The position numbers and the translations under genes are program-made. This document shows, piece after piece, positions 5,686-43,141 of a stretch of DNA of 64,000 nt (position 1 is its first letter; each line of letters opens with the position of its first letter). The stretch is taken from contig CAXHJY010001743.1 in assembly GCA_964016885.1 (NCBI GenBank), positions 86,809 through 150,808 on the forward strand, in the 5' to 3' direction. Under the pieces are notes generated by a model. It made no database searches, was not told the origin of the DNA, and was given only the letters and a program-made list of their open reading frames with translations. This DNA is from Eledone cirrhosa. Lineage: Eukaryota.

Positions 5686-5959
5686 TAATCAATACTTCAC
5701 TTTATCAAAATTATCCGGCTAAATGTTTGTCGAACGCTTTTGCTTTCTTGATCAAAGGCAGAGATCAATGATCGATCAATGCTATTGATTTTAATGGGAG
5801 TTGGGATTAAGTTTGTAATGATACTAAATTTTCTCCGGTCATTAGATACATCAATTGAATATAACCACAGCAACAACAACAACGACATCTAGGAAAAGAA
5901 CCTCCTTGTTGTTTAATCAAGGAAGAAGATGGGATTTTAAAATGACAAAGGCTTATCCA

Positions 5960-6325
5960 TTTAGCGAGGAAAAAGGAAAGTGTTTATTCTTTTAGCGAGG
6001 AAAAAGTCATACCCTGTTCTTTTAGCGATGAAAAAAGCCAGGTTTTATACTTTTATCAAGAAAAAAAGAAAGGTTTTATTCTTTTAGCGAGGAAAAGAGC
6101 CAGGTTTTATTCTTTTAGCAAGGAAAAAAGAAAGGATTCATTCTTTTAGCGAGGAAAAAAGCCAGGTTTTATTCTTTTAGCAAGGAAAAAAATAAAAAAT
6201 GTATTCTTTTAGCGAGGAAAAAAAGGTAGGGTTTATTCTTTTTGCGGGGAAAAAGGACGAGGTCTATTCTTTTAGCGAGGAAAAGAGAAAGGGTTTATTC
6301 TTTTAGGAGGAAAAAACCCGAAGTT
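5960..6325. repeat. ~31-bp degenerate tandem repeat (TTATTCTTTTAGCGAGGAAAAAAAGCCAGGTT-like), about 12 copies
   Basis: TCTTTTAGCGAGGAAAAA recurs at ~30-31 bp spacing. Confidence 0.85.
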
Positions 6326-11845: not shown

Positions 11846-12074
11846 CTATCAACATCGTCATTATATCCATATAAGGGTGTTTGAGCTTAGTTGAACGCTG
11901 TCAAAGGAAATATGAAGTGACATTGAAAAGCTATTTGGATCGAGCTTATGCTTCTGTCTCCTTGTTTTCCTTTTATTTAGAGATGACCTGTACTCCTTTC
12001 TTCTTCTTCTTCTTCTTCTTCTTCTTCTTCTTCTTCTTCTTCTTCTTCTTCTTCTTCTTCTTCTTCTTCTTCTT

Positions 12075-12172
12075 TTGCCTTTCATCCTTCCGGGGTCGAT
12101 AAAATAAAGTACCAGTAATGCACTGGATATGTTGCTGGCCTTATGCCAAAAGTAGAAACAATTATTATTATT
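12075..12172 (+). mobile_element. 3' part of tRNA-derived SINE family A with (TTA)n tail
   Basis: TTGCCTTTCATCCTTCCGGGGTCGATAAAATAAAGTACCAG...AGTAGAAACAATTATTATTA matches the full copies at 27316 and 38937. Confidence 0.85.
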
Positions 12173-13141
12173 AGTCTTGGGTCAAGCGAAGACCGAGAGG
12201 GAGCGCTTGGAGACTGGAATGTCTTCAGGCGCTCACAGCCCTCGACCAATCGGGCAATGTGATCGGTGGAAACTCCACCTTGGCGTTCTATAGAGGATTA
12301 GTGGAGGGGAAGAGCGACGACGTACTTGGAGAAACTCTAGGCGTCGACGAAAATCAACTAGCCAATCTCTTCGGAAGGACTTTCGAGCCGGGGCCTATGG
12401 ACAACTTCCAGAAATCCCTGGCCTGGCAGTGCTACTGAGGAGTTTTGCCAGTTCAGGATAAACTCTACAGGCATGGAGGTGCCGTCAGCCGGGCATGTCC
12501 GAAATGCACGCAGGGCGACGAAAAATCGTCCTGCACGCACTCGTCCAGTGTCTGAGCATTGCTGACTTGTGGGTTTATGTCGAACACCTGCTGTCACGTG
12601 TAGGACGGATCCAGCTATCAGCTGAGTCCATTGTGAGGTTTGCCCCGCCCTCTTCCTTTAGCCGGGAAGGGCAGACAGTTTTTATCTGTCTGGTGACCAT
12701 GGCGAAAGAGATAGTATGGTGGACATGTTTGAAAGGGCTGAAGACGAGCACTTACCTCTTCGGTGATGCCTTGATTAACTTTTTCAAATTTCATTTGAAA
12801 AGGAAAATCAGGGTAGAGAGGGAAGTGCTCTCTTCCCAGCATTTTGTCGAAAGATGGGTGAGAGAAGCAAGTATGGCCCGAGTGAATACTCTGAGTATAT
12901 GTCTGTAAATTAAAGGTGGAAAACTGGGAGAGGGCACTTGCCCTGGTGGTCAAGGTCACTGTGGCCTTTTAATGGGCTTCCTCCACAAATATCCCTCGGA
13001 AGTCTCCCCCCTATTGGGGAATTTTTTCATTGTTCTTTTATTACATCCTCTGTTTCTTGTTTTTTAAACGCAGAAATGCCTTTTTATACCGCCCTGTATT
13101 GTCCTGTACTGTCCTTAATGTCTACTTTATGTAAACCCTTG
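12173..13141 (+). mobile_element. 5'-truncated Tx1-like LINE copy (3' end of ORF2 plus 3'UTR), pseudogenised
   Basis: Closely matches 19901-20888. It has an in-frame stop (TAC TGA versus TAC CGA), a frameshift near 12520 and small deletions. Confidence 0.95.
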
Positions 13142-13161
13142 CATTATTATTATTATTATTA

Positions 13162-14838
13162 TTGTTATTGTTATTCCTTGAATCTCAGTCATTGATGTTG
13201 GTTAACTGGAAAGTCCGTTGGATTGAATATCAAGCCACTACCTGCAGCCTCAGATATTCAGGACGTATCGGAGGGTTCTTGCCGTTCCAAGCAAGCATGC
13301 CTTTTGAAGCGTTCCAAAAAGCGTGAAGGGGCCGATTTTCTTTAACCATCCCTGGAAACCTTTGGAGATAGTCCCCAGTGCGCCTATGACAATCGGGATC
13401 ACTTTGACTTCATGGCAGTTCCAAATCCTTTTCACCTCCCACTTTAGGTCCTGGTATCGGTTAATTTTCTCCCTCTCCTTCTCTTGCACTCTCGTGTCGA
13501 ACGGGCAGGCCACATCCACAATCAGGCACGATCTTTTTTCTTTGTCCACAACCACCAGGTCAGGTCTATTGTGTTCCAGTTTTTTGTCCGTCTGTATCCT
13601 AAAATCCCACAGCACCTTCACCTGACTGTTCTCCATCACCGCCTCTGGCCTATGCTCATACCATTTCTCAAAATGTGGTAGATTGTTTACTTTGCACAGG
13701 TGCCAGTGGATCACCCTGCCCATCACATCGTGTCTCCAGCCCTTATAGTGGGTCTGGGCTAGGTGTTTACACTCGGACACAATGTGAGCCACAGTCTCCT
13801 CTCTCTCTCCACAGATCCTGCACAGTGGGCTAGCCTCCTCCTTGTAGATATGGTGCTTCAACCACTTCGTTTTGAGGGCCTGCTCCTGCGCAGCCATTAG
13901 CATTCCTTCTGTAGCCTTTTTGAGGTCTCCTCTTCTCAACCAGTTCCATGTCTGTGGATCTCTAAATTCAGTTTTCTCAAAGAAGGTACTATGAAGGGAT
14001 TTTCCCTTAAGGCTGCTCTTCCTCCTTGATGTTATTTCCTCCTTGGGTATCCCCTGGCCTACTGTCCCCTCCTTCAGTACAGCTCTGAGCATTGGCTCCT
14101 TACTATAGGTCACGTATTTGTATAGGTTGTTTTTCTCCATCTGAACACAGTCCTCTATGCTGATAAGACCTCTTCCACCCTCAGATCTCCTTAGGTAGAG
14201 TCTATCGACATCACTCCTCTTGTGGAACATGTTGTAGATAGTCAATAGCTTCCTAGTCTTCCTATCCATTTCTTTTTGTTCGGCAACATTCCATCTCAGG
14301 ATTCCCGCACTGTACCTAATAATAGACACAGCTCGGGAATTTACTGCGCTTATGGCATTTCTGCTGTTCAGATGTGACTTCAATACGCTCCTTACTCTCC
14401 GAATGTATTCAGTTCTTAACAATTCCTTCATTTTTTTGTTCTTTATGCCATCAGCCTCCAGAACGCCCAAATACTTGTATCCTTCCTCAGAGTCAATTTC
14501 CTTTATCATCTCACCTGTTGGTATCTGGATCCCGTTACTTCTGCTCAACCTACCCCTCCTCATCACAATGACTCCACATTTACCAATACCAAACTGCATA
14601 CATATATCACTGCTGAAAATACGGACAGTGTCAACAAGCACATCCAACTCCTTCTCACTTTTCCCGAAGAGCTTAAGATCGTCCATGAAGAGGAGGTGAT
14701 TGATGGTAAGCTCTCCCCTTCCCAACTTGTATCCTGCTCTCACTTTTCGCAGCATAATGGTCAAGGGCATCAGGGCAAGGACAAACAACAGAGGCGACAG
14801 GCTATCTCCCTGGAAGATACCTCTCTTGATCTTCACGC

Positions 14839-14840
<2 letters not shown>
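13162..14840 (-). mobile_element. 5'-truncated Dong/R4-like REL LINE (copy 1)
   Basis: ORF 13250-14836 (528 aa) is nearly identical to the C-terminal half of 21012-24404; both ends abut (TTA)n. Confidence 0.95.
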
Positions 14841-14874
<34 letters not shown>

Positions 14875-15089
14875 GAATGCCATGGTTGACGGAGGCTCGG
14901 CTCTGTAAGGTATAGTAATTTTTAACCGTTAAAACAATTGTAAATTGTTTAAAACTTGAACCAAATTGTTGATAAAGACACCCTCCTCCTCGTGAGAGGG
15001 GTCTTTCTGTCCGTTATTTGGCCCTTCGGGGTTAAATAACCAGTTATTGGGGTTTTGTACCCAAAATTTCATTTTAAACAAAAAACAAC

Positions 15090-17185
15090 ATGGCTACAAA
15101 AAAGAAATTTCATACGTCACTCCCACTCATTCCGTCTTCTTCTTCCTCAATCATCACTACAGCAGAGAGAAGATTGTCTCTCTCCCTCCCTTCTTTAAAT
15201 GTGTCTCTCTCCCTCCCTTCTCTTTCGCAAGTGACGAAAGAAAAGAAAAGTCTCGTGCAAAGCGTGCAAGGTTTCTCCACGACGACGACGACAGCGACGA
15301 AACAGGTGTGCGGGAAATACGAAAACCCAGTTCATTCGTCTGACGTCAGGAATAATAGCAGTAGCAGCCGTAATAACAACAGCAACAGTGACAATGAAAA
15401 CAACAGTAGCAGCCGCAACAGCATCACCAGCAGCATAAACAACAACAGCATTAGCAGCAGCAACACCAACAACAACCACAGCAACAGCGGCGGAGGCAGT
15501 AGTCGTAGTACCTGCAGCAACAACAAAAGTACCAGCAGCTCTGACGACAACAACAACAGCAGAGAAAAACCAATCTCATTTGCAGGTATTGCGAAAAACT
15601 TGGAAACAATCCTCATAACAAATGAGGAATTAGAGGAAGCGAAGAAGATGGTGACAAAGAACGGACACCGAGCAATCTGCAAGGCAGCGGAAAAATTTTT
15701 CGAAACCCAAGAGCACTGTACGGTCACGTACCGTACAGTAAGTACAAAATCCCGTAGGGTGGAAAGAGTCACAGAGGCCCAAATACAAAAAGCCTTGGGG
15801 TCTGTGTGGCAGCGGAAAACGCACATCACCCGAGGCAAAAAATATGCCACCGTAGACGTACTTTTTGCCACACCCCAGGAGGCAAAGGCCCAATCAGTAG
15901 TGACCCTAAGGAGCGAGGAAATGGTGTTGGTGCCCTCCTACTGCGGGCAAAAAATTGTGAGGGTCAAACTGACCCACGTCCCCCCCGGAATGACCCCTTC
16001 TTGGCTGGCCGCGTCTGTCCTCGTCGGAATCGAGGACAAAACAACTGTACTGCAAGTACAGAAAAAAGTAAGAGAAGATTGGGTCGGCACCTCCATTGAG
16101 ATGCTAATCCAAACCAACCAGGAGTGCATCGAAGCTATCCCGGATGTGATAGACTTCGATAACGGCACTCAACTGCCCATAAGTGTTGAGGGCAAACGCC
16201 CGAAATGCTTTCGCTGTGGATCGAAGACTCACCTCAGGGCCTTCTGCAACGAGAAGACCCTGAGAAAGGAGAAAACCCCCCTCCTTCCGAATCCGGCTCC
16301 ACGGCTACCAGCAACAGGACAAGCGGCAACCAGGAACGATAGGTCCGTGGCACCCATACCCACCCCACGGAAATCAAAAACAGCAGCAGCAGTGGAAATA
16401 TTAACAACAACAACAGCAATACCAAATGCAGCTGCAACAGAGACTCCAGTGCAAACATCACCAACAACAACAAGTGAAAGAGTGGAGCTGGTACCCCTCC
16501 CCGACCTCACAGAATCAGACATGGAGTGTGAGGTGGGAGAGGATGGCAAAAGGTCGCAAGAAGGCACAAACGCAGAAGCAGCGCATCGTCGCCTTTGAAA
16601 AGGGAGGAAAGAAATGAGAAAAGGGTAAAGTCTACTGCAAAGAGACCCACAGCAGCAACACCACCAACACCATCACCACCCACACCAGCACCACCATCAC
16701 CACCGGCGACAACCCCACCGCCAACAACACCTTCAACACCATCACCACAAGCACCAACATCGCAAACACATCAACAAAACACACACACCCAGCAACAACG
16801 ACAAGAAAATAGCAGAACCACACCTCACCCCCAGAAAAACAAATGCACGGCAATAAACACACACAACAAGAAACTAATGACTTACATAATTGAACACACA
16901 GACATTTCACAACAGGACTACATAATACCAGCACCAATCAAAACGCCAACTAACATAAGACTGCTAAAAATAGCACAGAAACAATACACAAACATTAAAA
17001 CGAAATTCCCCAACGCAGTTGGTGATTTCAGGGACCTAGGAGGAACCATCAATCGAAGAGTATATTCAGACATTCTCTTAGAAGAGCCGACGACCAGCCG
17101 AAGGGACGATTCAACGGTCCCTTCACCAGACGATCAAGTGAAAAGGGATGTAAAAACCATCCCTCCTCTACCAAAAGTACGGTAA
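15090..17185 (+). CDS. Tx1-like ORF1p (gag-like, zinc knuckle), interrupted by an apparent 1-nt deletion near 16540
   Basis: CFRCGSKTHLRAFC is a CX2CX4HX4C knuckle. The frame of the 16595-17185 ORF is open from 16532 (GWQKVARRHKRRSSASSP...) and joins MECEVGE if one G is restored, giving ~698 aa. Confidence 0.75.
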
Positions 17186-17220
17186 GTGGTCTTTCCCATC
17201 TTTTCCACTCTATTTTAAAC

Positions 17221-20200
17221 ATGACCTCACTCAGAATAGGCAGCATAAATGCGCGTGGCTTGGGGTCGTCATGGAAGCAGGGTCACCTGCTCAACGACCT
17301 CAGGTCACTAAACATAGATGTAGTGGCCATCAGCGAGACCAGAATCTCCGAAGCACGGGCCTTCGCACCGATCTTCGGCGGCTACGATGTGTACGCATCT
17401 CCCAGCCGTCCTGGATCGGGTGGAGGAGTTGCTGTGCTTTTTCGGAGAGGTTTGGATCTCGCCATACGGGCCATCTTCCTGGACCCAGAGGGTAAGCTGG
17501 TGGTGCTGGACGTGACCAGCGGAGACGGGCAAGCTTTCAGGCTAGTGGCCGTCTATGCCCCGACAGGAGCAGGGCGGCCTGATTTCTTCCGGCGTCTGGA
17601 GACCTTTCTTGGAACGTCCCGCTCTTTAGTGTTAGTGGGCGACTGGAACGGGATCTTAGATGCACGCTGGGACTGTGTGGGATTAGCGGATAGGGGTGGA
17701 GGGTGCAAGAGCCTCACCAACCTGCTCAGGCGTTTTGAACTGTCTGACAGGTACCGATTGGATTTCCCGAATGTGCCAATGTGGACTTGGACAAACCGCA
17801 TAGGGTCATCCAGATCATATCTAGATAGAGTATTTTGTAGGGAAATAGATAGGTCTAGCATAGGCTGTCCACAATTCAAGATAGTCAGCTACACGGACCA
17901 CAAATTCGTGACCTGTGTGCTTGACTTAGATAGGCTTCATAGACGAGGACCCGGCTACTGGAAGCTAAACGCGTCCTTACCAGCGCGCAAGGCCTACAGA
18001 GACCGGATTAGCGAACTAGTTAAGCGGGCGTTGACGGGGGCCATCGTCAACAACAAGTGGTGGTTTGCTCTGAAAAGAGCGATTAGAATAGAATCGATTA
18101 GGTTTAGTAAGGCTTTAGCAATAGAGAAAAATAGAGCAGAGGGAGAACTAGTTACAAAATTAGACGAGGCGCTTAGCAAAGGCATTGCGACCGACGTGCT
18201 TGCGGCGAAATTGGCCCTTGACCAATTCTTCAATGCAAAGCACGAAGGCTGCGTTGTCAGAGCTAGGGTGCGTGCTCTCAGACACGAGGGGACGAAAGCC
18301 GTTCAATGGGCCCGAGTGGCGGAGGCGCGTCGTGGCAACAAAGCCACGATCCGGTCTTTGGTGGACCACGACGGGCGCATGCTACTCGATCCCGGGCAAA
18401 TGTGTGAAGCTTTTCAGCGACACTTCGCTCAGCTGTTCGGGGGCAGCGGGGGGCCGGGTAGAGGGATGGACTTTAGTGTCTACCTCGACGGACTGCCGCG
18501 GCTCTCGGCCACTGAGGCGAAGTGTTGCGAAAAGCCGATAACAGCCGCTGAAGTACGGGAGGCAATGACTGGCTGCACAAGGGGTAAATCGCCTGGTTTG
18601 GATGGTCTGCCCTATGAACTTTACGTACAGATGCCAGACTTGTTCGGAGGCCTCTTGGCGGACGTCTACTGCAACTGGCAACAGAACGGGAGAATTCCCA
18701 GTTCTGTGAGCCGAGGAGCGGTGGCACTGCTGAGAAAGGATCCGAACAAGGGGGATAACATAGAAAATTTCCGGCCCATAACTCTGCTAAACACAGAGTT
18801 TAAGATTTTGGCCAAGGTGCTAGCAAAGAGGTTGGCGCTTGTCGTTGGTGGTCTGGTGGGAGAGGCGCAGACATGCGCCATTCCCGACAGATCCATCCAC
18901 GACAACCTCCACCTCATGCGATACATCGTAGAGAGGGTAGCTAGGGAACCTGGCACGGGTGGGTCCTTGATCAATTTAGATCAGTCGAAAGCTTTCGATA
19001 GGGTCGACCATCGTTACCTAGCGGCAGTCCTGAGGGCGGCTGGCTTTGGGCCCGTCTTCAGAGGCTGGATCGCTGCCATGCACAGCGACATCTGCTCTGT
19101 GGTGAGAGTGAACGGTCACCTGTCGGAACCGTTCAACATCATGCGCTCGGTCCGCCAAGGATGTCCCCTCTCGTCCCTCTTGTACGTATTGACTCTCGAG
19201 CCATTACTGCACAAACTGGAGACGTTGAGGGGAGTCCCGCGCGAACTAGGATGCGGAAGATCCGTGTCAGCATATGCGGACGATGTCACCGTAGTGGTGT
19301 CGAACGCCAAACACATCGAGGCGATCGGCACTACACTAAGAGAATACGAAGCGGTGACAGGAGCAATGATCAACCAGGAAAAGTCAGTGGGCCTGCAGCT
19401 CGGCACCTGGAGAGGCAGGTCCATGCCGTCCAACAGCGTCGTCGGGCGCTGGACGGACGGACCGGTTAAATTGCTAGGGGTCTGGTTCGGTCCGGACCTC
19501 CAGACGGACAAAAACTGGGACGAGGTGACGAGCAGGGTGGCTTCTCTCACCCAGAAATGGGCGGAGAGGAAGCTATCCCTGAAAGGTCGAGCGGAGGTGG
19601 CTAACGCGTACATCGCGTCTGTCATCTGCTACCGCCTAACCGTCGTACCTTGTCCTAAGCCTCGCCTGACTGCGCTGGAGCGTTTGCTCTTTCGCTTTTT
19701 GTGGAAGGGACGTGCTCCGATGGTCAGGCGGTCCATCTGTTGTCAACACCCGCTACGTGGAGGGCTGGGCATGCCGTGGCTGATGATGCGCAGGCACGCG
19801 CTCAGGCTACGACATCTCCACCTCTTCCTCGACCGTGATCAGGTGTGGTCGCCGTTTGCTAGACGCGTTTTTCCCCAGCTCGTTTCCTTGACGGAGCTGC
19901 AGTCCTGGGTCAAGCGAAGACCGAGAGGGAGCGCCTGGAGACTGGAATGTCTTCAGGCGCTCACAGCCCTCGACCAATCGGGCAATGTGATCGGTGGAAA
20001 CTCCACCTCGGCGTTCTATAGAGGATTAGTGGAGGGGAAGAGCGACGACGTACTTGGGGAAACTCTAGGCGTCGACGAAAATCAACTAGCCAATCTCTTC
20101 GGAAGAACTTTCGGGCCAGGGCCTATGGACAACTTCCAGAAATCTCTGGCCTGGCAGTGCTACCGAGGAGCCTTGCCAGTTCGGGATAAACTCTACAGGC

Positions 20201-20640
20201 ATGGAGGTGCCGTCAGCCGGGCATGTCCGAGATGCGCGCAGGGCGACGAAACCGTCCTGCACGCACTCGTCGAGTGTCCGAAAATTGCTGACTTGTGGGT
20301 TTATGTCGAACACCTGCTGTCGCGTTTAGGACGGATCCAGCTATCATCTGAGTCTATCGTGAGGATTGCCCCGCCCTCCTCCTTTAGCCGGGAAGGGCAG
20401 GCAGTTTTTATCTGTCTGGTGGCCATGGCGAAAGAGATAGTATGGTGGACACGTTTGAAAGGGCTGAAGACGAGCACTTACCTCTTCGGTGATGCTCTGA
20501 TTGACTTTTTCAAATTTCATTTGAAAAGGAAAATCAGAGTAGAGAAGGAAGTGCTCTCTTCCCAGCAGTTTGTTGAAAGATGGGTGAGAGAAGCAAGAAT
20601 GGCCCGAGTGAATGGGCCGATTCTGAGTATATATCTGTAA
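17221..20640 (+). CDS. Tx1-like ORF2p: apurinic-type endonuclease + reverse transcriptase + C-terminal CCHC (1139 aa, intact)
   Basis: APE motifs GSINARGL, ISET, VYAP, GDWN, YLDR, TDH and GYWKLN. RT motifs KSPGLDGLPYE, FRPITLLNTEFKILAKVLA, LDQSKAFDRVDH, VRQGCPLS and YADD. Also GGLG and CPRC...ETVLHALVEC. Confidence 0.96.
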   Translation: MTSLRIGSINARGLGSSWKQGHLLNDLRSLNIDVVAISETRISEARAFAPIFGGYDVYASPSRPGSGGGVAVLFRRGLDLAIRAIFLDPEGKLVVLDVTSGDGQAFRLVAVYAPTGAGRPDFFRRLETFLGTSRSLVLVGDWNGILDARWDCVGLADRGGGCKSLTNLLRRFELSDRYRLDFPNVPMWTWTNRIGSSRSYLDRVFCREIDRSSIGCPQFKIVSYTDHKFVTCVLDLDRLHRRGPGYWKLNASLPARKAYRDRISELVKRALTGAIVNNKWWFALKRAIRIESIRFSKALAIEKNRAEGELVTKLDEALSKGIATDVLAAKLALDQFFNAKHEGCVVRARVRALRHEGTKAVQWARVAEARRGNKATIRSLVDHDGRMLLDPGQMCEAFQRHFAQLFGGSGGPGRGMDFSVYLDGLPRLSATEAKCCEKPITAAEVREAMTGCTRGKSPGLDGLPYELYVQMPDLFGGLLADVYCNWQQNGRIPSSVSRGAVALLRKDPNKGDNIENFRPITLLNTEFKILAKVLAKRLALVVGGLVGEAQTCAIPDRSIHDNLHLMRYIVERVAREPGTGGSLINLDQSKAFDRVDHRYLAAVLRAAGFGPVFRGWIAAMHSDICSVVRVNGHLSEPFNIMRSVRQGCPLSSLLYVLTLEPLLHKLETLRGVPRELGCGRSVSAYADDVTVVVSNAKHIEAIGTTLREYEAVTGAMINQEKSVGLQLGTWRGRSMPSNSVVGRWTDGPVKLLGVWFGPDLQTDKNWDEVTSRVASLTQKWAERKLSLKGRAEVANAYIASVICYRLTVVPCPKPRLTALERLLFRFLWKGRAPMVRRSICCQHPLRGGLGMPWLMMRRHALRLRHLHLFLDRDQVWSPFARRVFPQLVSLTELQSWVKRRPRGSAWRLECLQALTALDQSGNVIGGNSTSAFYRGLVEGKSDDVLGETLGVDENQLANLFGRTFGPGPMDNFQKSLAWQCYRGALPVRDKLYRHGGAVSRACPRCAQGDETVLHALVECPKIADLWVYVEHLLSRLGRIQLSSESIVRIAPPSSFSREGQAVFICLVAMAKEIVWWTRLKGLKTSTYLFGDALIDFFKFHLKRKIRVEKEVLSSQQFVERWVREARMARVNGPILSIYL

Positions 20641-20923
20641 ACTAAAGGTGGAAAACTGGGAGAGGGCACTTGCCTTGGTGGTCAGGGTCATTGTGGCTTT
20701 TTACTGGGCTTTCTCCACAAATGTCCCTCCGAAGTCTCCCCCCTATTGGGGAATTTTTCATTGTTATTTTCATTGTTATTTTTGTTACATCCTCTGTTTT
20801 TTTTTTTTTTTACACGCAGAAATGCCCATTTGTACCGTCCTGCATTGTCCTGCACTGTCCTTAATGTCTACTTTATGTAAACCCTTGTGGTTAATAAAGA
20901 AATCATTATTATTATTATTATTA

Positions 20924-23900
20924 TTGTTATTGTTATTCCTTGAATCTCAGTCATTGATGTTGGTTAACTGGAAAGTCCGTTGGATTGAATATCAAGCCAC
21001 TACCTGCAGCCTCAGATATTCAGGACGTATCGGAGGGTTCTTGCCGTTCCAAGCAAGCATGCCTTTTGAAGCGTTCCAAAAAGCGTGAAGGGGCCGATTT
21101 TCTTTAACCATCCCTGGAAACCTTTGGAGATAGTCCCCAGTGCGCCTATGACAATCGGGATCACTTTGACTTCATGGCAGTTCCAAATCCTTTTCACCTC
21201 CCACTTTAGGTCCTGGTATCGGTTAATTTTCTCCCTCTCCTTCTCTTGCACTCTCGTGTCGAACGGGCAGGCCACATCCACAATCAGGCACGATCTTTTT
21301 TCTTTGTCCACAACCACCAGGTCAGGTCTATTGTGTTCCAGTTTTTTGTCCGTCTGTATCCTAAAATCCCACAGCACCTTCACCTGACTGTTCTCCATCA
21401 CCGCCTCTGGCCTATGCTCATACCATTTCTCAGAATGTGGTAGATTGTTTACTTTGCACAGGTGCCAGTGGATCACCCTGCCCATCACATCGTGTCTCCA
21501 GCCCTTATAGTGGGTCTGGGCTAGGTGTTTACACTCGGACACAATGTGAGCCACAGTCTCCTCTCTCTCTCCACAGATCCTGCACAGTGGGCTAGCCTCC
21601 TCCTTGTAGATATGGTGCTTCAACCACTTCGTTTTGAGGGCCTGCTCCTGCGCAGCCATTAGCATTCCTTCTGTAGCCTTTTTGAGGTCTCCTCTTCTCA
21701 ACCAGTTCCATGTCTGTGGATCTCTAAATTCAGTTTTCTCAAAGAAGGTACTATGAAGGGATTTTCCCTTAAGGCTGCTCTTCCTCCTTGATGTTATTTC
21801 CTCCTTGGGTATCCCCTGGCCTACTCTCCCCTCCTTCAGTACAGCTCTGAGCATTGGCTCCTTACTATAGGTCACGTATTTGTATAGGTTGTTTTTCTCC
21901 ATCTGAACACAGTCCTCTATGCTGATAAGACCTCTTCCACCCTCAGATCTCCTTAGGTAGAGTCTATCGACATCACTCCTCTTGTGGAACATGTTGTAGA
22001 TAGTCAATAGCTTCCTAGTCTTGCTATCCATTTCTTTTTGTTCAGCAACATTCCATCTCAGAATTCCCGCACTGTACCTAATAATAGACACAGCTCGGGA
22101 ATTTACTGCGCTTATGGCATTTCTGCTGTTCAGATGTGACTTCAATACGCTCCTTACTCTCCGAATGTATTCAGTTCTTAACAATTCCTTCATTTTTTTG
22201 TTCTTTATGCCATCAGCCTCCAGAACGCCCAAATACTTGTATCCTTCCTCAGAGTCAATTTCCTTTATCATCTCACCTGTTGGTATCTGGATCCCGTTAC
22301 TTCTGCTCAACCTACCCCTCCTCATCACAATGACTCCACATTTACCAATACCAAACTGCATACATATATCACTGCTGAAAATACGGACAGTGTCAACAAG
22401 CACATCCAACTCCTTCTCACTTTTCCCGAAGAGCTTAAGATCGTCCATGAAGAGGAGGTGATTGATGGTAAGCTCTCCCCTTCCCAACTTGTATCCTGCT
22501 CTCACTTTTCGCAGCACAATGGTCAAGGGCATCAGGGCAAGGACAAACAACAGAGGGGACAGGCTATCTCCCTGGAAGATACCTCTCTTGATCTTCACGC
22601 TTCCCAAGGATACTCCAGTTGATGTCAACTCTGTCTCCCAGGACCCCATACTCCTGCCCAGCAACTCTCTGATGTTATCTGCCACCCTGAAGATCTCCAG
22701 GCTTTTGGTGATCCAGGAATGAGGCACCATGTCAAATGCCTTTCTGTAGTCTATCCATCCCATGGCAAGATCAGTGTGTCTCCTCCTGCAATTCCCCATT
22801 ACCATCTTATCAATAAGCAACTGGTCCTTTGTACCACGTGACTTCTTTCGGCATCCTTTCTGTTCGTCCGGCAACAAGTTGTTTGTGTGGAGGTGATGGT
22901 AGATTTCCTCAGACACAATGCTCGTCAACAGTTTCCACATTACGGGCAGACATGTGATAGGTCTATAGTTGGTAACATCATTACCCTTGATTCGGTCTTT
23001 CATTATCAGAACTGTGGTACCTTTTGTCAACCACTCTGGCACCTCACCCGACACCAAGCAGTCATTGAACATGGCCGTCAGCTTCGGGTGGAGGGATGTT
23101 AAATGTTTAATCCAATACCCCTGCACACCATCTGGGCCTGGTGATTTCCAGTTGGTTAGTTTTTTGGCTTGCCCCTTAAGAGTTTCAACTGTGATACTCA
23201 AATCAGTCTGTTGCTGTGCCTGCTCACCGATCTCCCTCTGTACTGTCTCAATCCACCCTGCCTGGGCATTGTGTCTAACATCCTGCTCCCATATTCCTCT
23301 CCAGAATGTTTTAGCTTGTTCCGCCCCAGGGATCAAGTCGGTGCCTCTTTCTTTCCCCTCAAGCTGTCCAAACAGCATCTTCTGGTTGTTGTCGAACATG
23401 CGGTTCTGTTTATACTGACTGACTCTGTTCTCGTATCGCCTGATTTTGGCACTCTTTGCTACAATGCGTTGCTTCAATTCCTCTATGATAATATTTAGCT
23501 TTTTACTCCTAGTTTTGTATTTTATTTCCAGTCTATTTTTAGTGCCTATGTTTTTTAGTGTCCCATTCAGTAGTGACTCAAGCTTTCCTATGTCATTTCT
23601 CATTTCCCCGATTTGCCCACTCAGTCGCTTCTTCCACCACGGCTCTGCTCTTTCTTGTCTGTTGTTTCCTCTCGCTTTTATACCAAGTAGTTTCCTCACC
23701 GTATTTGCTGTTGCTTTGAGGATATTGTTGCACTGGTGAAGACTCCTCGCCTCAAGGTATGGGATGACTTTGTTTACCTTAGCTGTTGTTTCTTTTAACT
23801 TTTTCCTGTCTACAAATCTTAGGTTCATAGGTCTCCCACTATCATTGTTCAACTCATCTACCACTAAATTTAGGATGTCAACCGAATCTTGTCCTAGCCC

Positions 23901-25448
23901 GTCAGCATTCATCTCCTCAGTGGCCGTATCTCTGTTCCAGGTATTATTTATCTCAGTATTCAGATCATTGTCTGCTTCGGGTGGTTCCTCCGCTCTCAGG
24001 ACCTCCTCACCTTCATTTCCCGCCGGCTCGCTTGTCTGGCATACTACACCCGCCATCTCCAAGCCATTCTCTCTGCTCAGTTCCTCCAGTTCCAGCTCGC
24101 TTATCCACCCATTAGTTCTTATTACCCGAGCCTGCCCGGCCAATTTTTGTTCATCTAATTTAAATAAACCAATCTCGTTCCAGATGTTATGCATCCGTCT
24201 CCTGTAGCCCCTCTCCTTGGGGTTACTTTTCAGGTAGCATTGCATAACAGTTCTATTCAATTCTTTCGTCCAGTTGGTTCTGGCCCCTTTCCTTCTTCTT
24301 CTTCCTCCAACATCAGCAGTATTTCGTTGACAGTCAGGTTCCTGCTGCTGAGCCAGGGGGCACCTGTTGGGTGAGAGTCTGTCACATGACGTTCTAGTCT
24401 CCATTTCACCGTTATTCGAACTGTTTATGTTCGATATTTAAACACTCTTATCGAGGATTGGCGAATGTATGTTTACATAGCCATCTGTGGATCCGCCATC
24501 CCACTTGGCCCTTGTGTGGCATTATCACCACGCTGTATACGGACACACATAAACAAACAAACACACGGGCAGAAAGGGCCCCAAAAATGAATAAGCATAA
24601 GTTTCATTGTAATGTAGTATTCGAATGTCTGACTTAGTTTTTGTTTTTTAAGTTTTACTTTTTCCCCCCTCTTCTCTGTCCGTCCGCCTGCCTCTCTCTT
24701 CATTCTTATTTTCTTTACGTTTTGGGGTTTTCTTTTTTTGTTTTTGTTTTTCTCTGTTTTTCTCGTTTTTTACTGTTGTTGCTGTGCTGCTTTTGTTGTT
24801 TATTTTTTCTTTTTTCTTTTGAGTCTATCTATATATTTTGATGCCTTCCTCTTTTTTAGCAGTAGGGATTCTATAATGTGGTGGCAGCAGCCAGCTAAAA
24901 GAAGAAGTGGGAGACTGGCGGTGGTAGCGATACTGAGACAGTGGTGGTGGTGATGTCGATACCGAGACAGTGGTGGCGGTGATGTGACCGTATTACTGTA
25001 GCGATGGTGCTGTAGCGGTGGCAGCAGTGAAGGAGTGAAGGGGTGGTGGCGGCGGTGATGGGATAATGGTTGTAATGATGGCCGTAGTGATCGGTGGTGG
25101 TTTAGTGTACACAGGTGATAGGGTGGGTGGTGTATCTAGTTTCTGGTGTTGGTGAGTTTGGCTGTTCTATATAGTGTATACAGAGGAGGAGGGGGGGGGG
25201 GGGGTTCTTCTTCCATTTATAGCCATTTTCTTTTTTGGATATACAGTGTACAATACAAAGTTGAATATTTGAATATTTGAGCCTTATAACAATATATTTT
25301 GGGTCCGAATTTTTTGGGGCTCAAGCCGGGTGCTTTACGTAGCATTTGTACTAAGAGTTGTTATTTCACAAATGGTTTAAATATGTTAAAAATTCAAAAC
25401 TTACGGGAGCGATTTCATGACCTCCGTCACCTCGTGCGTCTTCTTCCC

Positions 25449-25449
<1 letters not shown>
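20924..25449 (-). mobile_element. Full-length Dong/R4-clade non-LTR retrotransposon (copy 2), ~4.5 kb, with ~1 kb putative 5'UTR
   Basis: A single RT+REL ORF and a short 3'UTR running into (TAA)n. The upstream sequence ends exactly at the next (TTA)n tract, so the 5' boundary is inferred. Confidence 0.88.
21012..24404 (-). CDS. R4/Dong-type single ORF: N-terminal Myb-like region, reverse transcriptase, CCHC finger, restriction-like PD-(D/E)xK endonuclease (1130 aa, intact)
   Basis: N-terminus WTKELN...GYRRRM...EQKLAGQAR. RT motifs KSPGPDG, YRPITCL, WIDYRKAFD, GIFQGDSLSP and HLLFMDD. Also CRICGEREETVAHIVSEC, RHD, RPDLVV, DVACP, EKINRY and PIVIGALG. Confidence 0.96.
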   Translation of the reverse strand: METRTSCDRLSPNRCPLAQQQEPDCQRNTADVGGRRRRKGARTNWTKELNRTVMQCYLKSNPKERGYRRRMHNIWNEIGLFKLDEQKLAGQARVIRTNGWISELELEELSRENGLEMAGVVCQTSEPAGNEGEEVLRAEEPPEADNDLNTEINNTWNRDTATEEMNADGLGQDSVDILNLVVDELNNDSGRPMNLRFVDRKKLKETTAKVNKVIPYLEARSLHQCNNILKATANTVRKLLGIKARGNNRQERAEPWWKKRLSGQIGEMRNDIGKLESLLNGTLKNIGTKNRLEIKYKTRSKKLNIIIEELKQRIVAKSAKIRRYENRVSQYKQNRMFDNNQKMLFGQLEGKERGTDLIPGAEQAKTFWRGIWEQDVRHNAQAGWIETVQREIGEQAQQQTDLSITVETLKGQAKKLTNWKSPGPDGVQGYWIKHLTSLHPKLTAMFNDCLVSGEVPEWLTKGTTVLIMKDRIKGNDVTNYRPITCLPVMWKLLTSIVSEEIYHHLHTNNLLPDEQKGCRKKSRGTKDQLLIDKMVMGNCRRRHTDLAMGWIDYRKAFDMVPHSWITKSLEIFRVADNIRELLGRSMGSWETELTSTGVSLGSVKIKRGIFQGDSLSPLLFVLALMPLTIVLRKVRAGYKLGRGELTINHLLFMDDLKLFGKSEKELDVLVDTVRIFSSDICMQFGIGKCGVIVMRRGRLSRSNGIQIPTGEMIKEIDSEEGYKYLGVLEADGIKNKKMKELLRTEYIRRVRSVLKSHLNSRNAISAVNSRAVSIIRYSAGILRWNVAEQKEMDSKTRKLLTIYNMFHKRSDVDRLYLRRSEGGRGLISIEDCVQMEKNNLYKYVTYSKEPMLRAVLKEGRVGQGIPKEEITSRRKSSLKGKSLHSTFFEKTEFRDPQTWNWLRRGDLKKATEGMLMAAQEQALKTKWLKHHIYKEEASPLCRICGEREETVAHIVSECKHLAQTHYKGWRHDVMGRVIHWHLCKVNNLPHSEKWYEHRPEAVMENSQVKVLWDFRIQTDKKLEHNRPDLVVVDKEKRSCLIVDVACPFDTRVQEKEREKINRYQDLKWEVKRIWNCHEVKVIPIVIGALGTISKGFQGWLKKIGPFTLFGTLQKACLLGTARTLRYVLNI

Positions 25450-25496
<47 letters not shown>

Positions 25497-25498
<2 letters not shown>

Positions 25499-27115
25499 GT
25501 TGTTATTCCTTGAATCTCAGTCATTGATGTTGGTTAACTGGAAAGTCCGTTGGATTGAATATCAAGCCACTACCTGCAGCCTCAGATATTCAGGACGTAT
25601 CGGAGGGTTCTTGCTGTTCCAAGCAAGCATGCCTTTTGAAGCGTTCCAAAAAGCGTGAAGGGGCCGATTTTCTTTAACCATCCCTGGAAACTTTTGGAGA
25701 TAGTCCCCAGTGCGCCTATGACAATCGGGATCACTTTGACTTCATGGCAGTTCCAAATCCTTTTCACCTCCCACTTTAGGTCCTGGTATCGGTTAATTTT
25801 CTCCCTCTCCTTCTCATGCACTCTCGTGTCGAACGGGCAGGCCGCATCCACAATCAGACACGATCTTTTTTCTTTGTCCACAACCACCAGGTCAGGTCTA
25901 TTGTGTTCCAGTTTTTTGTCCGTCTGTATCCTAAAATCCCACAGCACCTTCACCTGATTGTTCTCCATCACCGCCTCTGGCCTATGCTCATACCATTTCT
26001 CAGAATGTGGTAAATTGTTTACTTTGCACAGGTGCCAGTGGATCACCCTGCCCATCACATCGTGTCTCCAGCCCTTATAGTGGGTCTGGGCTAGGTGTTT
26101 ACACTCGGACACAATGTGAGACACAGTCTCCTCTCTCTCTCTACAGATCCTGCACAGTGGGCTAGCCTCCTCCTTGCAGATATGGTGCTTCAACCACTTC
26201 GTTTTGAGGGCCTGCTCCTGCGCAGCCATTAGCATTCCTTCTGTAGCCTTTTTGAGGTCTCCTCTTCTCAACCAGTTCCATGTCTGTGGATCTCTAAATT
26301 CAGTTTTCTCAAAGAAGGTACTATGAAGGGATTTTCCCTTAAGGCTGCTCTTCCTCCTTGATGTTATTTCCTCCTTGGACATCCCCTGGCCTACTGTCCC
26401 CTCCTTCAGTACAGTTCTGAGCATTGGCTCCTTACTATAGGTCACGTATTTGTATAGGTTGTTTTTCTCCATCTGAACACAGTCCTCTATGCTGATAAGA
26501 CCTCTTCCACCCTCAGATCTCCTTAGGTAGAGTCTATCGACATCACTCCTCTTGTGGAACATGTTGTAGATAGTCAATAGCTTCCTAGTCTTGCTATCCA
26601 TTTCTTTTTGTTCAGCAACATTCCATCTCAGAATTCCCGCACTGTACCTAATAATAGACACAGCTCGGGAATTTACTGCGCTTATGGCATTTCTGCTGTT
26701 CAGATGTGACTTCAATACGCTCCTTACTCTCCGAATGTATTCAGTTCTTAACAATTCCTTCATTTTTTTGTTCTTTATGCCATCAGCCTCCAGAACGCCC
26801 AAATACTTGTATCCTTCCTCAGAGTCAATTTCCTTTATCATCTCACCTGTTGGTATCTGGATCCCATTACTTCTGCTCAACCTACCCCTCTTCATCACAA
26901 TGACTCCACATTTACCAATACCAAACTGCATACATATATCACTGATGAAAATACGGACAGTGTCAACAAGCACATCCAACTCCTTCTCACTTTTCCCGAA
27001 GAGCTTAAGATCGTCCATGAAGAGGAGGTGATTGATGGTAAGCTCTCCCCTTCCCAACTTGTATCCTGCTCTCACTTTTCGCAGCATAATGGTCAAGGGC
27101 ATCAGGGCAAGGACA

Positions 27116-27116
<1 letters not shown>
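25497..27116 (-). mobile_element. 5'-truncated Dong/R4-like LINE (copy 3)
   Basis: ORF 25582-27102 is near-identical to copy 2; (TTA)n on both sides. Confidence 0.95.
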
Positions 27117-27202
<86 letters not shown>

Positions 27203-27204
<2 letters not shown>

Positions 27205-27300
27205 CCTTACGGGGTCGATAAAATAAAGTACCAGTAATGCACTGGGTATTTGCTGGCCTTGTGCCTAAAGTAGAAACAATTATTATTATTATTATTATTA
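27203..27300 (+). mobile_element. 3' half of SINE family A
   Basis: ATCCTTACGGGGTCGATAAAATAAAGTACCAG...GAAACAATTATT. Confidence 0.85.
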
Positions 27301-27314
27301 TTTTTCTCCTCCTT

Positions 27315-27505
27315 AAGGGCGGTGGATTGGCAGTATCGGTAGAGGGTCGGACGCCATGCTTTCCAGCATAGTTACATCCCTTTACGATCTGAGTTCAAAT
27401 CCCGCCGAGGTTGACTTTGCCTTTCATCCTTACGGGGTCGATAAAATAAAGTACCAGTAATGCACTGGGTGATTGCTGGCCTTGTGCCATAAGTAGAAAC
27501 AATTA
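27315..27505 (+). mobile_element. Full-length tRNA-derived SINE family A with target-site duplication
   Basis: A-box-like TGGCAGTATCGGTAGA and B-box-like GAGTTCAAATCCC, with central GCCTTTCATCC..GGGGTCGATAAA. ATTATTTTTCTCCTCCTT is duplicated at 27297-27314 and 27502-27519. Confidence 0.9.
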
Positions 27506-27689
27506 TTTTTCTCCTCCTTCTTCTTCTTCTTCTTCTCCACCTCCTCTTCCTCCTCCTCCCGCCCCCTCCTCCTCCTCATCCTCATCCTCCTCCTTCTTCT
27601 TCTTCTTCTCCTCATCCTCCTCCTCCTCCCTCTCCTCCTCCTCCTCCTCCTCATTCTTCTTCTGCTTCTTCTTCTTCTTATCATTATTA

Positions 27690-27719
<30 letters not shown>

Positions 27720-27721
<2 letters not shown>

Positions 27722-28052
27722 GTTGTTATTCCTTGAATCTCAGTCATTGATGTTGGTTAACTGGAAAGTCCGTTGGAATGAATATCAAGCCACTACCTGC
27801 AGCCTCAGATATTCAGGACGTATCGGAGGGTTCTTGCTGTTCCAAGCAAGCATGCCTTTTGAAGCGTTTCAAAAAGCGTGAAGGGGCCGATTTTCTTTAA
27901 CCATCCCTGGAAACTTTTGGAGATAGTCCCCAGTGCGCCTATGACAATCGGGATCACTTTGACTTCATGGCAGTTCCAAATCCTTTTCACCTCCCACTTT
28001 AGGTCCTGGTATCGGTTAATTTTCTCCCTCTCCTTCTCTTGCACTCTCGTGT
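27720..28052 (-). mobile_element. Short 3' fragment of Dong/R4-like LINE (copy 4)
   Basis: TRVQEKEREKINRY...LRYVLNI plus 3'UTR; (TTA)n on both sides. Confidence 0.93.
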
Positions 28053-28097
28053 TATTATTATTATCATTATTAATATTATTATTATTATTATTATTAT

Positions 28098-29870
28098 TCA
28101 CCCATTCATTCCTGAGATGGTCATGGTAGGGAGAGTCCTCAAACACTCCTTCCAGCAGGTCCTGTCAGAAGAAATCATTTCCAACTGCTCCAGCTGGATC
28201 CTAAGTGTGACCAGCCAAGTGTGACCAGCCCCCAAGTTTGACCAGTCAAGCTCATTGATGTTATCCAACCATATTGCTCGGAATTCCCAAGTTTGACGAG
28301 CCAAGCTCATTGATGTTATCCAACCATATTGCTCGGAATTCCCAAGTTTGACGAGCCAAGCTCATGGATTTTATCCAACCATATTGCTCGGAATCCCCAA
28401 GTTTGACGAGCCAAGCTCATGGATTTTATCCAACCATATTGCTCGGAATCACCAAGTTTGACCAGCCAAGCTCATGGATTTTATCCAACCATATTGCTCG
28501 GAATCCCCAAGTTTGACCAGCCAAGCTCATGGATTTTATCCAACCATATTGCTCGGAATCCCCAAGTTTGACCAGCCAAGCTCATGGATTTTATCCAACC
28601 ATATTGCTCGGAATCCCCAAGTTTGACCAGCCAAGCTCATGGATTTTATCCAACCATATTGCTCGGAATCCCCAAGTTTGACCAGCCAAGCTCATGGATT
28701 TTATCCAACCATATTGCTCGGAATCCCCAAGTTTGACCAGCCAAGCTCATTGATGTTATCCAACCATATTGCTCGGAATTCCCAAGTTTGACGAGCCAAG
28801 CTCATTGATGTTATCCAACCATATTGCTCGGAATCCCCAAGTTTGACCAGCCAAGCTCATGGATTTTATCCAACCATATTGCTCGGAATCCCCAAGTTTG
28901 ACGAGCCAAGCTCATGGATTTTATCCAACCATATTGCTCGGAATTCCCAAGTTTGACCAGCCAAGCTCATGGATTTTATCCAACCATATTGCTCGGAATC
29001 CCCAAGTTTGACCAGCCAAGCTCATGGATTTTATCCAACCATATTGCTCGGAATCCCCAAGTTTGACCAGCCAAGCTCATGGATTTTATCCAACCATATT
29101 GCTCGGAATCCCCAAGTTTGACCAGCCAAGCTCATTGATGTTATCCAACCATATTGCTCGGAATCCCCAAGTTTGACCAGCCAAGCTCATGGATTTTATC
29201 CAACCATATTGCTCGGAATCCCCAAGTTTGACCAGCCAAGCTCATGGATGTTATCCAACCATATTGCTCGGAATCCCCAAGTTTGACCAGCCAAGCTCAT
29301 GGATTTTATCCAACCATATTGCTCGGAATCCCCAAGTTTGACCAGCCAAGCTCATGGATGTTATCCAACCATATTGCTCGGAATCCCCAAGTTTGACCAG
29401 CCAAGCTCATGGATTTTATCCAACCATATTGCTCGGAATCCCCAAGTTTGACCAGCCAAGCTCATGGATGTTATCCAACCATATTGCTCAGAGTATATAC
29501 CTGAGTCTCCTACCGTTTGGTTTTTACCCGTAAAATTAATCCAGTGATTTTATCCCGAGACATTCTACCCACATGCCCATAGTATCGGAGCTATGATCTA
29601 TCAATTCGGAGAAGTCGCAGATCTACCTGGAGTGACTCTCTGATCTCTGACCTACGCACTTCATCGAGTAACGTTACTCCAAAGACCCTTTGAAGGAACC
29701 ACATTTAAGTCGCTTGTATTCACAATCGTATTTTTTCGATCATTACCCAAGATTCACGACCATAGGTAAGGGTTGACACGAATACCAATTGAAGATAGCG
29801 AGTTTAACTTTTACACCTACCTCCAAAGACCCTTCCGAACTCATTTCGACAGCTTGTATTCCACCGTTGA
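28098..29870 (-). pseudogene. Degraded RTE-clade LINE 3' region (Expander/Rex3-like C-terminus) containing a tandem array
   Basis: Minus-strand translation gives LTYGRESWVM..IQAT*MWFLQRVFGVTLLDEVRRSEIRESLQVDLRLLRIDRS*LRYYGHVGRM, then WLDNINELDWSNLG...DRTCWKECLRTLP. Confidence 0.8.
28231..29490. repeat. 55-bp minisatellite, ~23 copies
   Basis: Unit CCCAAGTTTGACCAGCCAAGCTCATGGATTTTATCCAACCATATTGCTCGGAATC; period checked at 28561 and 28616. Confidence 0.97.
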
Positions 29871-34441: not shown

Positions 34442-34879
34442 ACAGTGGTGGTGGTTGTGATGACGTTAAAGATGGTGGTGGTGGGGTGATGGTGGGAAGT
34501 TATAATAAAGGTGTACCGAAAAAATCAAGGACTGTACATAACGATACAGTTTGATTTTATGTGACATCTTGTAAAAAGAGAGGGAGAGAGAGAGAGAAAG
34601 AAGTAAGGAAAACAAAAACAAATGCGGTAACAATAAAAATTCAAACAAAGAAAGCACCCCAGTGTGATGGCGGCAGCGACGGCGGCGGTTGTGGTGTTGG
34701 TGGTGGTGGTGGTGGTGGTTGTCGTCGTCGTCGTGTGGTCGTGGTCGTTTTGTGGTGGTGGTGGTGGTGGTGGATGTCGTGGTTGTCGTCGTTTTGATGT
34801 TGGTGGAGGAAAAACCAACAAACGGCTATGGTCACCAAAACGACTGAAACAAGTTCCTTTTCCCAGTTCTCCTACTTCA

Positions 34880-35690
34880 ATCTACAGGGATATAGTCAGA
34901 CCAGGTCTGTTCACTTGGACCATGTACGACACTCTCATCCACCTTTCAATAAATTTGAAGCACGTTCTTCTCCACCTCAATTTCCTTTTCAAGTGAAACT
35001 TAAAAAATGTCTATGAGAGATTCGCCAAAGAGGAAAGTGTCTGTCTTCAGCCTTGTTCAATCTTGTCTGCCGCACAACCTATTTGGCCATGATCACATGA
35101 CATAAAATCTAACTGCCCTGCCCAACCAAAGAAAACTTCACAGCTGACTGATAACCAGAGCCAATGAATACGTAATAGAAGCTGTTCCATATGACTTCAC
35201 GAATCAGCCATGTTCGAGAACTGGACTTTTTAATCCCTCATATTTTCTTTCATAGGCTCTAAACCAAAAGACCTGAGTCTCCCAGAGAACGTTGTCATTG
35301 ACCGCCAAAGTGAAGTATCAATCGATCGTATTGCCTGACTGGTAGATGACCGTGTGCGCGTGACCCCCTCTCAGTCTTTAATTGACCCATGACAGTAGAT
35401 ATATTAAAGGGATGAGCTAAAGAAAATCGCATCTGACAAACGACGAGCACAATCTGTTCATCGTCAAGGAAACGCTGGAGATGTTGCATCACCAGGCCAG
35501 GTCTGCACATCAACACCCACGGTATGCCTAGTCCTCCGTTCTATGGGTATTGTTAGCAGATGGATCACCTTTCCTGAGCATTTGACACTGGTGTGGGAAA
35601 GAAAAAGAGGGTAATCTTAAACTAAGAACCTGGTCCCTGTTAATTCTACACAATGGCAAGGAAGTGGTGTTAAACTGTGTGGGGAATGAC
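34880..35690 (-). pseudogene. Old, diverged relative of the Tx1-like ORF2 3' region
   Basis: Minus strand gives FFKFHLKRKLR...FIERWMRVSYMVQVNRPGLTISL* (compare FFKFHLKRKIR...FVERWVREARMARVNGPILSIYL*) and GGLGIPWV..QHLQRFLD (compare GGLGMPWL..HLHLFLD). Many frameshifts. Confidence 0.8.
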
Positions 35691-42857: not shown

Positions 42858-43141
42858 TTTTCTCTTTCTCTTAATTTCGAGTATATTTTTTTGACCGGCC
42901 ACCTTCCTGGTGGCAAGGTTGTAAAAGAAAAGAAATTGTCATCCCTTGAATCGCAAGAATGTTTTGCATATTTTGAAGGTGCCAGCTATCGCAGCCATTT
43001 GTAGACTATGAATTAGGGAGCTGCGCTTTTTGTCCGCAAATCCAAGTTCGGTCATACTTTGGTCCAAGCGGGTTGGTATATAACCCGTAGCACCAATAAT
43101 GATGGGTATGAAGCTAAAGGTGTATCTTGGATACTGGATTT
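42858..43141 (-). mobile_element. 3' fragment of a second REL-type LINE family embedded in (TACA)n
   Basis: YPRYTFSFIPIIIGATGYIP...LQMAAIAGTFKICKTFLRFKG* parallels PIVIGALGTI...LQKACLLGTARTLRYVLNI* of the Dong ORF; ~80-nt 3'UTR, then (ACAT)n. Confidence 0.78.

Follow-up and report, generated by a model that had tools for sequence, protein, structure and literature searches.

What leads two long interspersed nuclear element (LINE) families with unrelated endonucleases to insert beside one another, facing opposite ways, in one simple repeat? The question is raised by a 64,000-nt stretch of the Eledone cirrhosa genome (assembly GCA_964016885.1, contig CAXHJY010001743.1, positions 86,809 to 150,808 of the forward strand; hereafter the window), in which Tx1-like LINEs with an apurinic/apyrimidinic-type (APE) endonuclease and R4/Dong-like LINEs with a restriction-like endonuclease (REL) are strung along (TTA)n tracts. 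Nested TTA insertion of both families is real and genome-wide. The explanation that we favor, at a probability of roughly 70%, is that two unrelated, recently amplified LINE families co-target the TTA/TAA repeat in fixed opposite orientation, by first nicks on opposite strands.

Copies in the window were defined by BLAST of the window sequence against itself. This gave two Tx1-like copies, both on the plus strand, and four Dong-like copies, all on the minus strand, as described in a first-pass annotation of this DNA; its statement that every junction of the six copies lies in TTA repeats also held, for 12 of 12. The series opens with the 3' part of a short interspersed nuclear element (SINE; 12074..12160, plus), whose (TTA)4 tail (12161-12173), the first junction and just four units long, is the 5' flank of a 5'-truncated Tx1-like copy (12173..13141, plus; element positions 5027-6013; 91.8% identical to the full copy) that lacks the final ~16 nt of the 3' end, AATAAA included. 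A tract common to the Tx1 and Dong tails (13143..13165) leads to a 5'-truncated Dong-like copy (13166..14839, minus; 99.6% to the full copy), and another (14840..14874) separates the 5' truncation of this Dong from the 5' end of a full-length Tx1-like LINE of ~6.03 kb (14875..20906, plus). The latter meets a full-length Dong-like LINE (20928..25448, minus) tail to tail across a (TTA)n tract at 20907..20927. There follow a tract (25449..25497), a 5'-truncated Dong-like copy (25498..27115, minus; 98.8%), a (TTA)29 tract (27116..27202), a SINE 3' fragment with a (TTA)8 tail (27203..27302, plus), a SINE with an 18-nt target duplication starting ATTATT (27303..27502, plus, the 5' copy of the duplication included), a CT-rich tract (27511-27679), a (TTA)n tract (27678..27720) and a Dong-like 3' fragment (27721..28051, minus; 98.3%), at whose 5' truncation lies a last tract (28052..28098). 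By self-BLAST the three incomplete Dong-like copies are 98.3-99.6% identical to the full-length one. The alternation claimed for this nest applies to the first half only, since the order Tx1, Dong, Tx1, Dong gives way to Dong, SINE, SINE, Dong, and the earlier copy range of 17221-20904 needs correction: the full Tx1 begins at 14875, and 17221 is merely the start of its second open reading frame (ORF2).

To place these junctions in a wider context, exact sequence patterns were counted in the 3.0-Gb assembly, which contains 6107 exact Tx1 3' ends and 4071 exact Dong 3' ends. The sequence TTATTATTATT precedes 1630 of 1687 exact Tx1 5' ends, in one fixed phase, against 0.04% of positions in 15 arbitrarily chosen 10-kb stretches (150 kb); five of the 57 exceptions were inspected, and the upstream sequence of all five ends in ATT or TTA. 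We also examined a sample of copies on contig C1. For Tx1, the first 100 listed 3' ends were reduced to 73 by setting aside the last 23 and 4 duplicates or fragments of the same array; for Dong, the last 46 of its first 100 were set aside, leaving 54. A TTA-strand 9-mer marks the 5' junction in 40/41 full-length and 13/32 truncated Tx1 copies, and a TAA-strand 9-mer that of 44/54 Dong copies (6/7 full-length, 38/47 truncated), where the background of the rule is 0.37%; 53/54 Dong 3' flanks likewise fit the (TAA)n insertion of R4/Dong elements. Kojima (2015; PMC4494074) calls a Tx1 family target-specific when one sequence type makes up >20% of its flanks, and TTA exceeds that share in full-length (1630/1687) and truncated (13/32) copies alike. 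The first-pass proposal that this Tx1 family is (TTA)n-specific is supported, with the truncated copies as a qualification, and the contrary result that it had named, mostly non-TTA 5' flanks, did not occur.

Orientation is equally regular. Among the sampled copies, adjacent distinct Tx1/Dong pairs face opposite ways in 70 of 72 cases, and Tx1/SINE pairs lie on the same strand in 21 of 23; orientation is therefore fixed with respect to the repeat strand, as predicted, and not random. Genome-wide, at a gap of at most 32 nt, there are 218 Tx1-tail/Dong-tail and 239 Tx1-tail/Tx1-head junctions, and no Dong-tail/Tx1-head junction (0). An opposite-facing Dong adjoins 34/73 sampled Tx1 copies, and a Tx1 adjoins 17/54 Dong copies.

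These counts bear on the idea that the element itself supplies TTA at both ends, as a leader and a tail, while inserting almost at random and nesting through short ATTAT sites in earlier tails. Such a leader would account for the fixed ATT|G phase, for the presence of at least 6 TTA units in 99 of 100 listed Tx1-tail/Tx1-head junctions and of 1-4 units in none, for the repeat of at least 18 nt upstream of young full-length copies (bar one duplicated pair whose tract is interrupted), and for the retention of TTA in just 13/32 truncated copies. Truncated copies, however, cannot carry a leader and are still ~110-fold above background (41% vs 0.37%), the older copy L193 has ATTATT only upstream, and Dong directly adjoins Tx1 in nearly half of the sample. 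Moreover, the contrast between zero Dong-tail-to-Tx1-head junctions and 239 same-family ones demands a pre-existing target that is read by strand. Taken together, these features make self-supplied repeats very improbable.

The first-pass annotation had further proposed that each family reuses target left by the other, and relative identities, with identity to the window copy serving as a proxy only for age, support both directions. Dong is nearer its reference than Tx1 in 19 of 20 short tail-to-tail pairs, a result that leans that way because the sample was chosen with a young-Dong pattern; the reverse order occurs too, in that Tx1 copies of 97.6-99.1% identity adjoin Dong copies of 77-96% (L091, L137, L138, L140, L149). 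Passive accumulation, through survival of LINEs in repeat-rich neutral regions or through arrays grown by recombination or mis-assembly, can draw on the tandem arrays of near-identical copies that occur at ~6.05 kb spacing, and on a duplicated flank of 286 nt before two tandem Tx1 copies (L019/L020). It cannot produce the base-exact phase, the strand asymmetry or the family-specific repeats, and the 5'-end and junction counts above already contradict it. Neighboring elements are 1-23% divergent from the reference copies, a sign that they inserted separately and at different times; we regard passive accumulation as extremely improbable. A second long duplicated flank, of at least 50 nt, surrounds a Dong copy (L158), and for both flanks either a large target duplication or later tandem duplication would serve.

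Several observations weigh against co-targeting as stated above. The sample consists of the matches met first along a single contig, several of which lie in common arrays. Two Tx1/Dong pairs are same-facing (L047, L131). Among the truncated Tx1 copies 19/32 fail the strict TTA rule, 18 lacking the TTA 9-mer and 1 having TAA. The 18 junctions, sorted by reading each case, comprise 3 internal rearrangements, 5 direct fusions to Dong and 2 fusions to another LINE; of the rest, 4 lie at a SINE tail or a short site resembling ATTAT, 2 in (TTC)n, 1 in (CTA)n and 1 in unique DNA. Deletion at or after insertion accounts for the fusions. The SINE enters short ATTAT sites outside long tracts, with 12/15 control copies having no upstream TTA tract, which suggests that the nick may need just 5-6 nt. 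Finally, a search for a hepatitis delta virus (HDV)-like ribozyme at the Tx1 and Dong 5' ends gave no Rfam match and none by a strict descriptor, although a divergent one could escape both. The Dong 5' end has a fold z of +0.6, and the Tx1 5' untranslated region (UTR) folds better than shuffled sequences (z -3.1), as plain hairpins.

The fused copies invite a different explanation, in which both elements were copied from opposite ends of a single break and joined head to head, a form of twin priming with two elements. The TTA-strand end left by the second cut of Tx1 would be the very primer that Dong RNA needs. Head-to-head Tx1/Dong pairs without repeat between them make up 7/38, and the partners appear similar in age, judged by nearest-neighbor identities, in 4 of 6 tested. 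The joints show little or no microhomology where examined, and deletion during or after insertion explains them as well; two-element twin priming is unneeded by the data, and we consider it very unlikely. Fused head-to-head 5' truncations of Tx1 and Dong were seen at L093, L129, L142, L147, L150, L082, L177 and L214, and an ordinary 5' inversion of the twin-priming type in a Tx1 copy at L230:1037-1980.

Target-primed reverse transcription begins with a nick in the DNA strand to which the RNA is complementary. By this rule the fixed opposite orientation would place the first nick of Tx1 and the SINE in the TAA strand and that of Dong in the TTA strand; opposite-strand nicking is thus what we infer from the priming rule. 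Under co-targeting, the Tx1-like APE endonuclease would first open the TAA strand and the Dong-like restriction-type enzyme would start with the TTA strand, each freeing a 3' end (..AATAAT and ..TTATT, respectively) that would pair with the matching RNA tail and prime cDNA synthesis. Because tail and duplication keep the repeat on both flanks, each insertion would yield two tracts that either family can use, and nests would grow. Full-length Tx1 RNA may in addition carry, or pair with, about six upstream UUA units. Some R2 RNAs are known to retain 9-36 nt of upstream 28S sequence, which pairs with the target at the 5' join (PMC3774820), and the full-length Tx1 copies resemble R2 elements in their uniform 5' junctions, although no ribozyme was found here by the searches above and the Tx1 leader would be a weaker part of the scheme. 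By analogy such a leader is likely; it would account for the exact ATT|G junction and the minimum of 18 nt in full-length copies, which are stricter than truncated copies or SINEs, and for the looser junctions where the 5' end is truncated.

The SINE appears to follow Tx1. Target duplications of at least 9 nt (9-26 nt), starting ATTA, are present in 21/34 informative SINE copies, compared with 6% when pairs are mismatched. Duplications of 11 and 16-17 nt, again starting ATTA, occur in two truncated Tx1 copies; in full-length Tx1 any fixed long duplication would be hidden by the pure repeat. Similarity between the 3' ends of the SINE and Tx1 is weak (shuffle P 0.06 and 0.02), and the case for a partnership therefore comes from the orientation and from where the duplications start; mobilization of the SINE by Tx1 is likely. 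Besides the copy at 27303-27502, SINEs lie in the window at about 38940, 46860, 58340 and 58540, inserted at short ATTAT(T).

A sister Tx1-like family, found in an arbitrarily chosen stretch (L200), is 59% identical in the APE domain and 68% in ORF2. Its tail is TATC, and its 5' junctions are TATC-strand repeats in 26/30 cases, GATA in 0/30 and TTA in 0/30, where the background is 1%. A tree was built from 30 C-terminal fragments, namely every one of the 18 copies below 88% identity, 6 of 62 closer copies and 6 database proteins; it separates TTA-tailed from TATC-tailed copies with 100/100 support. TTA is therefore not a general sink for Tx1-like LINEs, and the repeat is family-specific. Sister families in (TATC)n form tandem nests of their own (L200:2130-8000, L231-L260), the L200 copy being truncated, and a first look gave ~1400 candidates for one of them.

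What chooses the repeat is a separate matter. The Tx1 endonuclease might be loosely specific, with priming selecting the target, in that only nicks exposing TAA-strand ends could pair with an (AUU)n RNA tail. Orientation and co-targeting would then look no different, but the determinant would lie outside the APE domain. That all informative duplications begin at ATTA, the expected tail-pairing site, agrees with this, as do the Tx1 insertions in (CTA)n and (TTC)n; in the sister family, tail and 5' flank are both TATC, so that tail and enzyme co-vary. Yet some Tx1 3' ends pass into non-TTA sequence after 3-4 nt (L043, L092, L116), leaving little to pair, and in TRAS1 and SART1 a swap of the endonuclease domain moves the specificity (PMC7265360), so that in a comparable APE system target choice follows the enzyme. 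On balance a priming-selected target seems unlikely, although the sequence fits either the enzyme or RNA-DNA pairing as the chooser. Since two sister families in one genome, with APE domains 59% identical, use different repeats, a domain swap between them offers a direct test of target choice. Recognition of microsatellites by APE endonucleases has been described as poorly understood (PMC3812793).

The coding content agrees with two unrelated enzymes. The full-length Tx1 encodes a separate ORF1 (15090..17185, plus) with a CX2CX4HX4C zinc knuckle, CFRCGSKTHLRAFC, at aa 373, upstream of ORF2 (17221..20640, plus; 1139 aa). A separate ORF1 with a zinc knuckle is a feature of the Tx1 clade (L1 group). 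A Pfam search of ORF1 gave no match. In the window copy it is frameshifted near 16540 (502 aa, vs ~697 aa in other young copies), and both frames are open in 7/22 sampled full-length copies. ORF2 has an N-terminal APE domain (17221-17930), a reverse transcriptase (RT; YADD) and a C-terminal CCHC motif, with catalytic motifs present and Pfam matches to PF03372, PF00078 and PF13966 (zf-RVT); its nearest solved structure is L1 ORF2p (E 3e-53, vs 2e-21 for R2). The Dong-like LINE has a single ORF (24404-21012, minus; 1130 aa) that runs from RT (FMDD) through CCHC to a PD..D..K restriction-like endonuclease, without APE, and its nearest solved relatives are R2 proteins (E 6e-30). The APE motifs of Tx1 and the REL motifs of Dong are intact. 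Database protein matches include Argonauta (73%) and an Octopus fragment (64%); no named Tx1 reference is among the matches, and the 120 listed Dong homologs carry no element names. The labels Tx1 and Dong are thus putative, resting on domain layout and target rather than on a tree that includes named references. Within Tx1, the target is not the (TC)n or (TTC)n of the Kibi and Koshi families, the 2/32 truncated copies at (TTC)n aside.

The Tx1 ORF2 and 3' end were also found behind at least two different halves comprising 5' UTR and ORF1, with a switch near element position 2263 and ORF1 ~50% identical (L107, L094 and others; L124:1520, L061). Alignment of 24/60 long Tx1 regions first stopped near this position, and 23 of the 24 run into a different 5' half; full-length copies of both halves begin after TTA, and a third 5' type, likewise starting after TTA, exists. 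A second intact R4-like family (L176:242-4040) has a 1216-aa open frame, 36% identical to Dong, and ends in (AAT)n. Many Tx1 tails lie opposite its 3' end, and the tracts are thus shared by two or more REL families.

Each ingredient of this system has a precedent. Kibi targets (TC)n and Koshi targets (TTC)n, and Tx1 families of crocodilians occupy (TTCC)n or (TTTC)n (Kojima 2015, PMC4494074; PMC3812793). The present Tx1 is likewise an APE-type LINE of the L1 group in a microsatellite, but it differs in its (TTA)n target, (TATC)n sister and cephalopod host, in its >6000 exact 3' ends, and in sharing its tract with an R4-type element. Dong, DongAg and DongBg are (TAA)n-specific in insects and a snail (PMC3812793), a Dong element is reported from Octopus bimaculoides (PMC9115989), and Dong-R4 and L1-Tx1 were both recently active in O. 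vulgaris (PMC13282606). The element here is, like known Dong, a single-ORF RT, CCHC and REL element in TAA tracts, and octopus Dong is similarly from a mollusc. In the main-text parts of the octopus papers (PMC13282606, PMC9115989, PMC8967140) we found no target analysis and no mention of co-nesting of Dong with Tx1, and the text available of PMC8869645 held nothing further on Tx1 or Dong targets. The HDV-like ribozyme of silkworm Dong (PMC3774820) had no counterpart at the 5' end here by Rfam or strict descriptor.

Convergence of APE and REL elements on one target is itself familiar. R1 and R2 both insert in 28S rDNA. Keno (Tx1, APE) and Utopia (REL) share one U2 snRNA site (PMC4640811). Those targets are RNA genes destroyed by insertion, whereas here a microsatellite is left on both sides and the two elements face opposite ways. 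TRAS1 and SART1 belong to the R1 clade. As in the present case, these two LINEs occupy one tandem repeat, (TTAGG)n, in opposite directions (PMC7265360), but both are APE-type and telomeric, whereas Tx1 and Dong have unrelated enzymes and occupy dispersed tracts. Because APE/REL pairs on one target and opposite-facing pairs are in print, the novelty is smaller than first proposed. No TTA-targeting Tx1, and no Tx1/R4 pair sharing a microsatellite, was found in the literature searched, which excluded Repbase and most subscription papers. The present data extend the target range of Tx1-like elements to TTA and TATC and show an APE and a REL element building common nests throughout a 3 Gb genome. 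Such nests matter for the annotation of cephalopod repeats, for how cephalopod trinucleotide tracts arose and for using AAT microsatellites as markers.

Elsewhere in the window, the sites 34850-35131, 53722-54913 and 42939-43100 carry an older minus-strand Tx1-like fragment (71% by self-BLAST) and, judging from translations, degraded remains resembling a CR1-type LINE and the 3' end of an R4-type element. Tandem arrays occupy 28230-29489 (55-nt units), 1-5662 (21-nt units) and 5953-6316 (31-nt units).

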